From a virus: a stretch of DNA of 64,000 bases. The notes beneath the pieces are model-generated. The model was given only the letters and a program-made list of their open reading frames with translations, was not told the origin of the DNA and made no database searches. This document shows positions 16,564-27,183 of this stretch, in pieces. A program made the position numbers and the translations under genes. The stretch is from IMG/VR virus record IMGVR_UViG_3300025770_000656; one strand, given 5' to 3'. The first letter of the stretch is position 1, and the number at the start of each line of letters is the position of its first letter.

Positions 16564-17259
16564 ATGATTAACAATATTTACGTAGGATGGGATAGCAGGG
16601 AAGACATTGCTTTCCAAGTGTGCGAACATAGTATTTATAAACGCACATACAGGGACTTTATAAATGTGATTCCTCTTAAACAGCATGAGCTCAGAGAACA
16701 GGGAAAGTACTGGAGGGAAAAGGATAAACTTTCTAGTACAGAATTTACGTTTACTAGATTTCTTGTTCCATACTTAAATGATTATAAAGGTATTGCAGTT
16801 TTTTGTGACTGTGATATGGTGTGGCTAATTGATGCTTACCACGTATTCATGAACGGCTTTACAAAAGACAAGGATAAAGCAGTTTGGGTAGTTAAACACG
16901 AATATGAGCCAGAAGAAGGTATTAAGATGGATGGACAGCTACAGTTACCATATCCACGTAAAAACTGGAGTAGTATGATGGTTTTTAACTGTGAACATCC
17001 TAAAAATCGTGCATTAGATCTAGAAACAATTAATACAAAACCTGGTAGCTATTTGCATCGTTTTGAATGGTTAGATGACGATGACATAGGTGAACTTGGG
17101 CCAGAATGGAACTGGTTAGTTGGTCATTATAAAGAGCCAGAGCATGGTAAACCCAAGATATTACACTATACACTAGGCGGCCCATGGTTTGAAAACATGC
17201 GAGATTGTGAATATGATCATGTGTGGAAGAAAGAAATTATTAACTTGTATTCATCATGA
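16564..17259 (+). CDS. Glycosyltransferase (GT8-like)
   Basis: YVGWDSRE, STEFTFTRFLVP, FCDCDM, PRKNWSS, LHYTLGGPWF. Confidence 0.8.
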   Translation: MINNIYVGWDSREDIAFQVCEHSIYKRTYRDFINVIPLKQHELREQGKYWREKDKLSSTEFTFTRFLVPYLNDYKGIAVFCDCDMVWLIDAYHVFMNGFTKDKDKAVWVVKHEYEPEEGIKMDGQLQLPYPRKNWSSMMVFNCEHPKNRALDLETINTKPGSYLHRFEWLDDDDIGELGPEWNWLVGHYKEPEHGKPKILHYTLGGPWFENMRDCEYDHVWKKEIINLYSS

Positions 17260-22116: not shown

Positions 22117-22144
22117 TTGACCATAGATAAATTTGTGCTATTAT
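22117..22144 (+). promoter_or_regulatory. Host sigma70-type early promoter
   Basis: GG-TTGACC-N16(TGC)-TATTAT. Confidence 0.75.
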
Positions 22145-22172
22145 AAGTTATAGTTAGAAAACAACGGAGCAG

Positions 22173-22463
22173 ATGATGTCCAATTTGAACAAAGCACTTG
22201 AAGCCATTGCAATCCTCGATAACGACGAGCTGAACGACGTAGCCGAGGCTTTTAAGTTACGCCGTAACTTTTTGAACACCAAAGCCGCCCGTAGTTTTGT
22301 TGTTGGTGATCGGGTTGAGTTTACTGGCAAGCGTGGCAACAAGGTAGTTGGCGAAATTAAGAAGGTCAACCGCAAGAACCTAGTTGTTGAGGATCTTAAC
22401 TCTGCAACATCATGGCGTGTACCGGCTAATATGGTCAAACCTGCTTTAGGTCTTGGCCTTTAA
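22173..22463 (+). CDS. Small early protein, possibly SH3-like
   Basis: FVVGDRVEF...VGEIKKVNRKNLVV...WRVPANMV. Confidence 0.65.
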   Translation: MMSNLNKALEAIAILDNDELNDVAEAFKLRRNFLNTKAARSFVVGDRVEFTGKRGNKVVGEIKKVNRKNLVVEDLNSATSWRVPANMVKPALGLGL

Positions 22464-22471
22464 GTTTTCGG

Positions 22472-22499
22472 TTGACATAATGGCATAATCTGCTATTAT
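22472..22499 (+). promoter_or_regulatory. Host sigma70-type early promoter
   Basis: GG-TTGACA-N16(TGC)-TATTAT. Confidence 0.8.
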
Positions 22500-22539
22500 G
22501 TATGAGTAAGTTAAATTAATGCTTGGAGGAGCAAACAAG

Positions 22540-23592
22540 ATGGATTACGTTCTTATTAAGTCAGGTACATACCAGAAGTTGCAAGTTACTGACAAGGTAT
22601 TCCCTGTAATTAAGCAATTCAAGACTGGTGCCCGTGGATCTTACATCACTGTAGATGGTACTATCCTTGGTAGCGACTATGCTCGCCCAGTTCGTATTAA
22701 ATGCACAAAAGCAGACATTGTAGATGTTGAGCAAGATGCATATGATCGTCAACTTTCCGCACTAGCAGTTAATACAGATATTAAGACTGCTAGCGATTTA
22801 GATAGCTTTACTCCAGAACAAGATGAAAAGCGGATGCAAGAGATTGAAGACCGTTTTGAAATCTTAAATGAAATGACTGGCGCTCTTAAGAGTGGCGATA
22901 TCCGTGCAATGATTGTAACGGGCCCTCCAGGTGTTGGCAAGAGTTACGGTGTTACACAGACTCTTGAAGAGCAGAGCATCTTTGAAGATGTTGCTAGCCG
23001 CAACCGCAAGTTTGAGGTTGTTAAAGGTGCAATGACTGCACTGGGCTTGTATGCTAAATTGCATGAGTTTAGCGAAAAAGGCAACGTACTAGTATTTGAC
23101 GATTGCGATAGTGTGCTGATGGACGATCTAGCCCTTAACATTCTTAAAGCCGCATTGGATTCAGGTAAGAAGCGTAAGATCTTCTGGAACGCAGATTCAG
23201 CTAAGTTACGTGCTGAAGGCATTCCTAATAGCTTTGAGTTTAAAGGTACTGCATGCTTTATCACTAACATCAAGTTTGAAAACGTAAAAAGCCGCCGTTT
23301 GCAGGACCACTTAGAAGCTCTGCAATCACGTTGCCATTACCTGGATCTTACACTGGATACGATGCGTGACAAGTATCTTCGCATCAAACAGATTGCACGT
23401 ACTGGTAAATTGTTTGGTTCTGATTACGGATTTACTCCAGAGCAAGAGCAAGAAGTCCTGGACTTCATGTTTGAGAACCGTAACAAGTTGCGTGAAATGA
23501 GCTTGCGTATGGCCCTTAAAGTTGCAGATCTCAAGAAGATCTCAGATAAGTGGCGTGTACTTGCAGAGTCAACTTGCATGAAACGAGCATAG
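22540..23592 (+). CDS. P-loop (AAA+-like) ATPase
   Basis: Walker A TGPPGVGKS, Walker B VLVFDDCD, ITN, ALQSR; strong GGAGG SD at 22525. Confidence 0.8.
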   Translation: MDYVLIKSGTYQKLQVTDKVFPVIKQFKTGARGSYITVDGTILGSDYARPVRIKCTKADIVDVEQDAYDRQLSALAVNTDIKTASDLDSFTPEQDEKRMQEIEDRFEILNEMTGALKSGDIRAMIVTGPPGVGKSYGVTQTLEEQSIFEDVASRNRKFEVVKGAMTALGLYAKLHEFSEKGNVLVFDDCDSVLMDDLALNILKAALDSGKKRKIFWNADSAKLRAEGIPNSFEFKGTACFITNIKFENVKSRRLQDHLEALQSRCHYLDLTLDTMRDKYLRIKQIARTGKLFGSDYGFTPEQEQEVLDFMFENRNKLREMSLRMALKVADLKKISDKWRVLAESTCMKRA

Positions 23593-23601
23593 AGATCGTT
23601 A

Positions 23602-23639
23602 GCTGTACCACTTGCTCCTCCTCTCCTCCAAGGTACAGC
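23602..23639 (+). ncRNA. Hairpin with pyrimidine-rich anti-Shine-Dalgarno loop (candidate regulatory RNA element)
   Basis: Stem GCTGTACC/GGTACAGC; loop ACTTGCTCCTCCTCTCCTCCAA. Confidence 0.45.
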
Positions 23640-23647
23640 CAAACGCA

Positions 23648-23677
23648 GGCGGTGTGTTTAGAAATAGACACACCGCC
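23648..23677. terminator. 13-bp GAAA-tetraloop hairpin, probable terminator or processing stem
   Basis: GGCGGTGTGTTTA-GAAA-TAGACACACCGCC; no clear U-tract on + strand. Confidence 0.55.
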
Positions 23678-23691
23678 GTCCTTATGTTAGA

Positions 23692-24339
23692 ATGGATGTA
23701 ATGAAAAAAGTAGCTCTAGGCGATAGTTTTACATACGGAGAGGAATTAGCTGATAGGAATAACGCATATCCGGCATTGCTTGGATATGAAAACTGGGGAT
23801 TAAAAGGTGCCAGTAATGAATATATTTTTCGTAAGGCTGTTGAACTAGCACCAAAAGCGGATCATATGATAATAGCCTGGAGTGACAGCGGGCGTTATGA
23901 GCTATATACTAATAAAAAAATAAATATATCTAATAGATATATTCAACATAACGGCATAGTACAAGTTAATCCAGGATGGACTCAGCTGAGTCCATGGTTT
24001 AAAGAATTGTACGGCAATTATAGTGATCAAGAACACCAATTCTTAAAAACAATATCATACATGGTTGCAATTCAAGACGTACTAGTGATTAATAATGTAG
24101 ATTATCTACAAACATCTAGCTTTGGTAACCAAGATTTATTTGTAAAGTACCAGGACAGTGATTTAATTAAGCCCTGGATTGCTAGGCTAGATAAGACTAA
24201 GTTCATAGACTATCCCCATGGATTAGTAGAATGGGCCTATGATACTCCGCAAGGGCCTAATGGACACCCGTTGGAACTAGGACATAAGAGGATAGCAGAA
24301 AACATTGTTAGATATATCAATGATTTACACAGTAGGTGA
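23692..24339 (+). CDS. SGNH/GDSL-like protein
   Basis: LGDSFTYG, NWGLKGASNE, GHPLELGH. Confidence 0.6.
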   Translation: MDVMKKVALGDSFTYGEELADRNNAYPALLGYENWGLKGASNEYIFRKAVELAPKADHMIIAWSDSGRYELYTNKKINISNRYIQHNGIVQVNPGWTQLSPWFKELYGNYSDQEHQFLKTISYMVAIQDVLVINNVDYLQTSSFGNQDLFVKYQDSDLIKPWIARLDKTKFIDYPHGLVEWAYDTPQGPNGHPLELGHKRIAENIVRYINDLHSR

Positions 24340-25006: not shown

Positions 25007-25729
25007 ATGAGTATAATCTATAAAATTACAAACAAATTAAACGGTAAAATATATGTTGGAAAAAGTAAGTATAGCATGGATGATTATTTTGGATCAGGGA
25101 TTATTATAACGCATGCAATTAAAAAATATGGAATAGAAAACTTTACTAAAGAAATAATTGTTGAATGCGATGATGCTGAAATTGATGAGCTAGAAGGATA
25201 TTGGATAGAACAATTAAACGCACGTGACAAATCAGTGGGTTACAATATATCCAGCGGCGGACAGGGCGGAGACCACTATTGGAAAGTTATGTCCGATGAA
25301 GAAAGAGAGCAGCACCGAGAGAAAATCCGAAAAAGTATTAAGGGAAGAAAACGAGCACCGCATAGCGAAGAAACAAAAAGAAAAATGTCAGCGAGCTTTG
25401 GCCGCGTTGTGGCCGACGATCCGGAATTTATTGCTCGACGAGCAGCAAAGAAGAGAAAGCACTATATTATAATTGATCATGAGAATAAAGTAGTATACGA
25501 AACGGATAATATTGTGGAATTTTGCCAAGACAACGATGTACCGTCGCATGCTCGGTTACAACATAATGAGAGAAATAAGAAAACATACGTTGATGGTAGG
25601 TGGTCATGTAGATTAAAAGAGGAATATGTTATGGATAACGTAATCAGCTTTGTCGATAATGAGGTAGTTAATAACACAATAGAATATAAGATGAGACAAA
25701 CAGCAAATAGAAAAAAGGGAAATAAATGA
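25007..25729 (+). mobile_element. Free-standing GIY-YIG homing endonuclease (Seg-like, NUMOD3-type repeats)
   Basis: IYKITNKLNGKIYVGKS, YFGSG, ELEGYWI, GYNISSGGQGG, HSEETKRKMS. Confidence 0.85.
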
Positions 25730-27183
25730 AGCCGTGCGTTATTCATGTCAACGATGAAGTTAACTGTAAGTTAGAAGGCTTAGATTTGGATACCAGGCGT
25801 AAGCTGAGTAATAAGTTTAAGTATGATGTGCCAGGTGCTCGCTATATGCCAGCGGTAAGGCTAGGACGTTGGGACGGCAAGGTTGCTTTTTTCCAAATGG
25901 GAGGCAGTACTTACATTAACTTGTTACCAGAAATTCTTACTGTATTGCAGAGTGACGGATATGATGTTACGTTAAACGACTTACGTGATTATCAGATAGA
26001 CCTGAATTTAGAGCCTGTAACAGCAGATAGTTATGCTGAGTTTTCATGGCCTGACAAGCATCCAGCCGCAGGGCAACCTATTATGTTGCGTGACTATCAG
26101 GTAGATGTTATTAATAATTTCCTAACAAATCCGCAGAGCTTACAAGAAGTAGCAACTGGTGCTGGTAAGACACTTATTACAGCCGTGCTAAGTCACAGAT
26201 GCGAAGCACATGGCAGAACAGTTATTATTGTTCCTAACAAGAGCCTGGTAACGCAAACCCAAGAAGACTACATTAACATGGGATTAGATGTTGGCGTATA
26301 TTATGGTGACCGCAAGGAGTTTGGCAAAACACACACCATTTGTACCTGGCAGAGTTTAAACATACTGTTAAAAAATACCAAGAATCAGAGAGCAGAGATT
26401 ACTATTGGAGACTTCCTAGAAGACGTAGTTTGCATTATGGTAGACGAAGTACACATGGCAAAAGCAGATGCACTCAAGACATTGCTAACAGGAGTAATGA
26501 GTCATATACCTGTACGCTGGGGATTAACTGGAACAATACCCAAGGAAGATTTCGAAAAGCAAAGTTTGTTTTGTAGCATTGGGCCAGTAACCGGCAGCAT
26601 TAGTGCTAAAGAGTTGCAAGACAAAGGAGTTCTTGCAAATTGCGAAGTGAATGTGTTACAATTAATAGATGTAAAAGAGTATACAAACTATCAGAGTGAA
26701 CTTAAATACTTGTTGGAAGCCACTGATAGATTAGATTACATTGGTGGTGTAATAGATAATATTAAAGATACTGGTAATACGCTGGTATTGGTGGACAGAA
26801 TAAATGCAGGAAAAGAATTACAGAAAAGGATTCCGTCTTCCGTTTTTGTTAGCGGTGGAACAAAGGCACAGGAGCGTAAGGATCATTATGATGAGGTGGC
26901 TGACGCAACTGGTAAAGTTATTATTGCTACTTATGGTGTTGCCAGTGTTGGTATTAATATACCCCGTATTTTTAATTTGGTATTGTTGGAACCCGGCAAG
27001 AGCTTCGTCCGTGTTATCCAAAGTATCGGAAGAGGAATTAGAAAAGCAGAAGACAAGGACTTTGTCCAGATATGGGATGTTACATCGACGTGTAGGTTCG
27101 CGAAGAGGCACCTTACCAAAAGGAAAGCGTTCTATAAAGAGGCAAACTACCCCTTTACGGTTCAAAAAGTAGACTGGACTTAA
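25726..27183 (+). CDS. uvsW: UvsW-like SF2 DNA helicase
   Basis: LRDYQ, ATGAGKT, DEVH, GLTGT, ATYGVASVGINIP, QSIGRGIR. Confidence 0.85.
   Translation: MKPCVIHVNDEVNCKLEGLDLDTRRKLSNKFKYDVPGARYMPAVRLGRWDGKVAFFQMGGSTYINLLPEILTVLQSDGYDVTLNDLRDYQIDLNLEPVTADSYAEFSWPDKHPAAGQPIMLRDYQVDVINNFLTNPQSLQEVATGAGKTLITAVLSHRCEAHGRTVIIVPNKSLVTQTQEDYINMGLDVGVYYGDRKEFGKTHTICTWQSLNILLKNTKNQRAEITIGDFLEDVVCIMVDEVHMAKADALKTLLTGVMSHIPVRWGLTGTIPKEDFEKQSLFCSIGPVTGSISAKELQDKGVLANCEVNVLQLIDVKEYTNYQSELKYLLEATDRLDYIGGVIDNIKDTGNTLVLVDRINAGKELQKRIPSSVFVSGGTKAQERKDHYDEVADATGKVIIATYGVASVGINIPRIFNLVLLEPGKSFVRVIQSIGRGIRKAEDKDFVQIWDVTSTCRFAKRHLTKRKAFYKEANYPFTVQKVDWT

Follow-up and report, generated by a model that had tools for sequence, protein, structure and literature searches.

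An anti-leader hairpin loop that covaries with the ribosome-binding site of its own early gene, an NrdC.10-type ATPase, in marine T4-like phages

Just past the stop codon of an early ATPase gene in a marine T4-like phage there is a hairpin whose loop is the complement of the ribosome-binding site of the very same gene, some 1.1 kb upstream, and this raises the question of whether the two ends of one message are made to meet and what such a contact would do to the translation of the protein. The window, by which we mean the whole stretch of 64,000 nucleotides that was analysed, has a G+C content of about 38%, carries genes for a UvsW-like helicase and for a GIY-YIG endonuclease, and is present in sequencing runs labelled marine or seawater metagenome; a 95%-identical relative of 55 kb is known. 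The endonuclease ORF (25007-25729) is homing-endonuclease-like, with GIY-YIG plus NUMOD3, and has a 4-nt overlap with the UvsW-like helicase gene (25726-27183). The features of the ATPase locus are as follows.

22472..22499, + strand: sigma-70-type early promoter, TTGACA, 16 nt, TG-extended TATTAT (11/12; promoter scan)
22506..22539, + strand: 5' leader of about 34 nt (start placed from promoter spacing)
22522..22534, + strand: target site CTTGGAGGAGCAA, the Shine-Dalgarno (SD) GGAGGAG plus its flanks (sequence)
22540..23592, + strand: AAA-type ATPase gene, 350 aa, homologue of T4 NrdC.10 (tblastn, PHROG, Pfam)
23602..23639, + strand: hairpin 1, 8-bp stem and 22-nt C/U-rich loop (sequence and fold)
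23612..23621, + strand: anti-leader register 1, TTGCTCCTCC, pairs with 22525-22534 (exact 10-nt reverse complement)
23623..23632, + strand: anti-leader register 2, CTCCTCCAAG, pairs with 22522-22531 (exact 10-nt reverse complement)
23648..23677, + strand: hairpin 2, 13-bp G+C-rich stem with one G-U pair, GAAA loop (fold)
23665..23693, + strand: next promoter, TAGACA, 17 nt, TG-extended TAGAAT (scan), its -35 lying within the 3' arm of hairpin 2

The ATPase gene begins with an ATG at 22540 and ends with a TAG stop at 23590-23592. Its product shows 30-39% identity (tblastn) to the annotated nrdC.10 of T4, JS10 and RB14 and falls in phrog_1250, a family of unknown function, at 3e-77; homology together with a Walker-type ATPase domain places it in the T4 NrdC.10 family, with an AAA_16 match that is weak and lies under Pfam's curated cut-off. 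In the literature searched, nrdC.10 figures in one paper, as a conserved ATPase-like ORF only. Because a strong promoter ends 40 nt before the ATG, the leader would be about 34 nt long, and by itself it has a weak fold (-6.2 kcal/mol). Having its own promoter, a short leader, the ORF, and then two hairpins and the next promoter, the gene looks like a self-contained, monocistronic early transcription unit. Read-through past the ATPase is possible, since hairpin 2 is without a clear U tract in the window (its tail is GUCCUUAUGUU, and the terminator scan gave no call there); hairpin 2 is possibly a weak terminator or a 3' stabiliser, and the anti-leader element may often be internal to longer read-through transcripts instead of 3'-terminal. 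Of six metatranscriptome runs with a small share of the stretch, four were examined; the contigs obtained were short, lay within the coding region or spanned promoter and leader, showed no transcript ends and left 23387-23800 uncovered.

On the upstream side (22117-22463), a 96-aa ORF of unknown family is served by another promoter of the early type (TTGACC, 16 nt, TG-TATTAT) and has an SD (GGAGCAG) with 6 nt in common with the ATPase leader; bicistronic transcripts of this ORF and the ATPase are possible because there is no terminator before the ATPase promoter. The gene on the downstream side (ATG at 23701, 212 aa, without a confident Pfam or PHROG match) looks leaderless, as its ATG follows the end of the -10 TAGAAT by 7 nt and lacks an SD, and a -10-to-ATG spacing of 5-7 nt is also found for this gene in related loci (L002-L012, L018 and L022). 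A classical T4 early/late arrangement, in which the hairpins would mask the SD of the downstream gene, was considered and set aside for this reason.

Inspection of the sequence on its own (hereafter the sequence-only reading) had drawn attention to an 8-bp stem, 10 nt past the ATPase stop, with two 10-base stretches complementary to the gene's own SD region, and to a second, 13-bp GAAA hairpin behind it. All of these are present. Hairpin 1 is closed by pairing of 23602-23609 with 23632-23639, leaving the loop 23610-23631, ACTTGCTCCTCCTCTCCTCCAA; the leader contains CTTGGAGGAG at 22522-22531 and GGAGGAGCAA at 22525-22534, each of which is matched exactly by one register of the loop, the second register taking in G23632 of the closing pair of hairpin 1. 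One of the 13 pairs of hairpin 2 (23648-23677) is a G-U. For the two hairpins together the fold energy is -42.1 kcal/mol (z = -4.5 relative to shuffled sequences), and the predicted leader-loop duplex reaches -19.6 kcal/mol, compared with -9.3 for the leader and an E. coli-type 16S tail, which may not be that of the host. The contact between loop and leader is of the pseudoknot type, which the folding programs used, RNAcofold included, cannot represent.

A match of this kind is unlikely to have come about by chance within the window. When the 3' region was shuffled, a complement of at least 10 was reached in 0.3% of 5000 trials, a figure that fell to 0.1% when the C/U-rich loop only was shuffled. 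Among the window's ORFs of 100 aa or longer, 73 in number, the ATPase is the sole outlier (a complement of 10 versus a maximum of 8 elsewhere), and no second site resembling the 13-mer leader was found anywhere in the 64 kb. Of the three + strand copies of the heptamer CTCCTCC in the window, two are in the loop of hairpin 1. The sequence-only reading had also raised a general role for the element against GGAGG-led mRNAs; within the 64-kb window, neither this nor a generic sponge for all GGAGG sites gained any support, the extended match being unique to the ATPase leader.

The wider distribution of the arrangement was analysed in approximately 230 homologous loci, obtained from three scans of viral contigs (76 at first and then 160 more). 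In almost all of them a GGTTGAC(A/T)-N16-18-TAtaAT promoter is directly upstream of the gene and the leader measures 20-45 nt; since this conserved, adjacent promoter gives short leaders, the complementary site would lie within the transcript. Though the leaders differ between clades, the 3' region contains the complement of the leader of its own locus, with at least 12 leader types to be distinguished, for example GGAGGAGCAA, GGAGAGAG, AGGAGTAACTAT, GGAGCGAA, CAT(T)CCACGCAAA and GAGGGCA/CTA/CG. The clade of the window has the types GGAGGAGCAA, which pairs with TTGCTCCTCC, and GAGGAGCAAG. Elsewhere, GGAGAGAG(A) is paired with a 3' (T)CTCTCTCC, AAGGAGCAA with TTGCTCCTT, and AGGAGTAACTAT with ATAGTTACTCCT, which overlaps the stop codon and in L017 extends to a 15-bp duplex with one G-U; the leader GGAGCGA(A) finds its (T)TCGCTCC in two to three copies, borne in 9-nt hairpin loops that include terminator loops. 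The site need not be the SD itself: the types CATCCACGCAAA and CATTCCACGCAAA are just upstream of it and AGGGCACACTA sits at the leader's extreme 5' end, and each has its own 3' complement. The 160 added loci brought the new types CATTCCACGCAAA, GAGGGCA(AT), GAGGGCTA, GAGGGCG and AGGGCAT(T), again each with its own matching 3' sequence. At one position a series from A-U through G-U to G-C can be followed, in which GGAGTAAC faces GTTACTCC (L023) and then GTTGCTCC (L017/L019), the last step being GGAGCAA opposite TTGCTCC in L026.

Leader type changes 29 times on the protein tree, and in 10 of the 12 named leader types most members have 7 nt or more of exact complement no further than 100 nt from the stop. 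The 3' partners were also swapped between loci, using one representative per 80%-identity protein cluster; with 17 clusters the observed match was 129 versus a null of 104 +/- 4.7 (0/6000 permutations) and with 22 clusters, after the 160 loci had been added, 153 versus 134 +/- 5 (6/3000 permutations), P values which overstate independence as the sequences share ancestry, although some 12 sequence types remain. An alignment of related loci had been proposed as the check on covariation of loop and ribosome-binding site, with a loop that was unconserved or did not covary counting against the idea; neither was the case. The sequence-only claim of pairing between the 3' loop and the gene's own SD thus gains its support from at least 12 covarying sequence types and the partner-swap permutations, and its claim that the match goes beyond the generic SD core stands as well, for the match includes clade-specific flanks and is lost when partners are swapped.

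In these relatives a hairpin loop carries the anti-leader, or else the anti-leader is found right at the stop codon, and three clades other than that of the window have one copy 0-8 nt past the stop. Where the CCACGCAAA clade had seemed to be without the complement, the larger contigs show it on the strand of the gene, 0.7-1.1 kb past the ATPase stop, as the last part of a longer unit. In contigs of 110-300 kb the anti-leader motif TTCGCTCCC hardly occurs outside the 3' end of the ATPase gene. Closer to the window, register 1 is conserved in L003, L006 and L007 and, displaced by a single base, in L008-L011, register 2 is common to L002 and partly to L007, and the match is down to a 6-bp core in L004 and L005. 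L009 amounts to a natural mismatch variant, with a replaced leader (5-bp match) and the TTGCTCC loop kept; its promoter is lost as well (1460-1500), and the ATPase there is apparently co-transcribed with the upstream gene for these reasons. Several clades among the approximately 230 loci have no recognisable anti-leader, nor was one recognised within 700-900 nt downstream in the cultured phages T4, JS10 and Vibrio K356, while Aeromonas Asfd_1 has a single 10-mer 440 nt downstream; from these absences it follows that the anti-leader is not essential to the gene family.

The hairpins are conserved as well as the complementarity which hairpin 1 displays. Throughout the wider clade of the window hairpin 1 is kept, with at least three pair types at each of stem positions 2-11 and many G-U pairs, around loops of 17-25 nt that are always C/U-rich. 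Hairpin 2 is conserved with compensatory changes, and some other clades have clear U-tract terminators in its place. RNAalifold, run on the MAFFT alignment, recovered hairpin 2 only, as indels had misaligned the stem of hairpin 1, which was instead tabulated sequence by sequence. The fold of the + strand is the more stable in 85 of the 141 distinct 3' regions, and this, together with the G-U pairs in the stems and in the 15-bp duplex of L017, assigns the structure to the sense RNA. Relatives show hardly any variation in the loop region of hairpin 2 (23656-23670, TTTAGAAATAGAC), in part since its TAGACA serves as the -35 of the next promoter; a similar TTCAGAAATAGAT occurs in T4 (L078), in hairpin-like sequence some 40-60 nt past the nrdC.10 stop. 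Another hairpin with a C/U-rich loop (TCCTTTTCCCTCC, 6-bp stem) is found in the window on the minus strand at 16712-16724, where the neighbouring genes also run minus.

Taken as a whole, the sequence evidence makes it likely that the anti-leader RNA pairs with its own leader and thereby shuts off or times translation of the ATPase, in a manner reminiscent of icaR and OppZ. The loop of hairpin 1 would pair with the leader of the same message, over the SD and its specific flanks, in one or other of two alternative 10-bp registers, and as the predicted duplex is about twice as strong as the pairing of the SD with the 16S tail it should occlude the ribosome-binding site. Translation would be possible while the message is being made, and the ribosome site would become masked when the 3' end has been made or stable 3' fragments have built up, so that an early gene would carry its own shut-off, timer or negative feedback. 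We infer both the pairing in vivo and the repression; where the transcripts end, and whether the contact is made in cis, within one molecule as in icaR, or in trans, by a stable 3' fragment acting on fresh transcripts as with OppZ and CarZ, are likewise matters on which the sequence permits us to make proposals. Masking could, more speculatively, be coupled to translation, because terminating ribosomes should melt the base of hairpin 1 or cover a stop-proximal copy.

There is the possibility that the hairpins are mainly a trans-acting sRNA, derived from the 3'-UTR or made as a transcript of its own, which targets tagged early phage or host mRNAs and has the ATPase as only one among several. 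This is suggested by the GGAGCGA clade, in which the tag GGAGCGA-N(2-7)-ATG is found before 2-12 genes per contig (0 in the reversed control), several of them adjoining the ATPase, with matches on both strands and some overlapping, as in G002 (contig of L067; 160962-169459) and G004 (contig of L069; 38400-46897); here the sequences suggest that the ribosome-binding tag is a private one and that the anti-tag hairpins have a small regulon. The build of the element in some clades, with two to three anti-leader copies of which some sit in terminator loops followed by U tracts, is also sRNA-like, and the distant anti-leader of the CCACGCAAA clade points the same way. Furthermore, a sequence resembling a promoter, TTGCAT-N17/18-TATAAT (or TACAAT, TATACT), lies across the stop codon of L004, L005 and L007-L012, reaching from some 25 nt before the end of the ATPase ORF to about 10 nt beyond it, and could transcribe the hairpins alone as a small RNA. 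However, the window has the TTGCAT, which can be put down to coding constraint, but no -10 of such a promoter; its other GGAGCAA sites are not ribosome-binding sites, the best alternative target is doubtful, and the extended match is to the ATPase leader alone. The dominant signal, moreover, is covariation specific to the gene's own leader, and we therefore regard an element that works mainly in trans on other messages as unlikely.

Covariation shows pairing and not the sign of its effect, and the contact could also be thought of as protective, closing the mRNA into a loop and so shielding the leader and SD from endonucleases, be they RegB-like and GGAG-specific or RNase E, or holding terminating ribosomes near the start. 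T4 RegB does cut GGAG in the SDs of early genes, and the stop-proximal copies of the three clades could be covered by terminating ribosomes. The hbs mRNA offers a precedent, in that a contact between 5'- and 3'-UTR affects ribonuclease action (PMC5737220). Against a positive role, it is the SD itself that the duplex takes up, with a predicted strength above that of SD-16S pairing, and in the studied cases such a duplex blocks initiation; we thus hold protection to be quite improbable. More improbable still is that the match is a by-product, arising from a C/U loop that resembles any SD complement, from a protein-binding site, or from a GGA-rich CsrA-type site on the minus strand. CCUCC is certainly complementary to any GGAGG SD, and partners swapped between clades still match over 5-7 nt; however, it is the clade-specific flanks that are included in the match and lost in swapped partners, and there are types, CAT(T)CCACGCAAA and AGGGCACACTA for instance, that do not resemble an SD at all. 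Covariation has already largely refuted this explanation. The minus-strand CsrA-type loop, which the sequence-only reading had entertained, was rejected on the grounds that the genes are on the + strand, that G-U pairs would be A-C mismatches on the minus strand, and that the + folds are the more stable.

Returning to pairing of the loop with its own leader as the preferred reading, we put forward, tentatively, a wider proposal: that this may be a new RNA device, widespread in marine and freshwater T4-like phages, in which one to three anti-leader copies at the 3' end of the ATPase message would form a self-closing translational timer, with closure perhaps coupled to terminating ribosomes and with an extension, in some clades, to an early regulon marked by a private ribosome-binding tag. 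To our knowledge, pairing between the 5'- and 3'-UTR that masks a ribosome-binding site comes from only a few bacterial mRNAs, each found singly, whereas the same logic would here be a conserved and co-evolving trait of one early gene across many uncultured T4-like phages. The leader types provide natural compensatory-mutation evidence, which is rarely available for long-range mRNA contacts. They also suggest an RNA-only route to the shut-off of early genes in phages, mark the NrdC.10-type ATPase, of unknown function, as a protein whose dose or timing may matter, and offer compact, orthogonal leader/anti-leader pairs that could be tried out directly in reporters.

Long-range 5'-3' occlusion of the translation start is the mode of control in hok and aapA, and the cuckoo/CcsR sRNAs have CCUCC-rich hairpin loops that pair with ribosome-binding sites. 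The gene described here differs from hok and aapA in that it encodes a 350-aa ATPase, with no toxin, antisense partner or 3' trimming logic evident; neither an antisense promoter nor a small toxin ORF, as expected of a hok/Sok-type system, is evident at the locus. A search of the whole window against Rfam, the cuckoo/CcsR families included, gave nothing at the gathering score, and at E <= 5 the region 22480-23720 gave nothing but two chance matches inside the CDS. Our literature search found no description of an ATPase anti-leader element in phages.

The closest parallel in terms of the pairing is icaR of Staphylococcus aureus, in which a pyrimidine-rich anti-SD in the 3'-UTR pairs with the SD of its own mRNA, so that the initiation complex is blocked and a substrate for RNase III is made (PMC3868564). 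In the phage element, too, the 3' motif is the complement of the SD region of its own message. Unlike icaR, to which it bears no sequence relationship, it belongs to a lytic T4-like phage, occupies a short 3' region and displays its complement in a large hairpin loop with two registers; it is also conserved with covariation across a broad phage group, and is known here from sequence. OppZ and CarZ of Vibrio cholerae are autoregulatory sRNAs derived from 3'-UTRs, which pair with the translation start of their own unit in a negative feedback (PMC7398697), and they share with the phage element a seed complementary to their own translation start region and, in some phage clades, a build of seed, terminator hairpin and U tail. 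In contrast to these sRNAs, the terminator-like hairpin of the window is without a U tract; in architecture the element is compatible with a discrete 3' RNA of the kind that RNase E sets free and that acts in trans with Hfq. Finally, pyrimidine-rich 8-mers resembling an anti-SD, and placed hundreds of nucleotides from a ribosome-binding site, can pair with it over long range, inhibiting initiation and promoting decay (PMC12697547). Such sequences are reported to be depleted from genes by selection (PMC12697547), whereas the one found in the phages is positively conserved and co-evolves with the leader that it matches.
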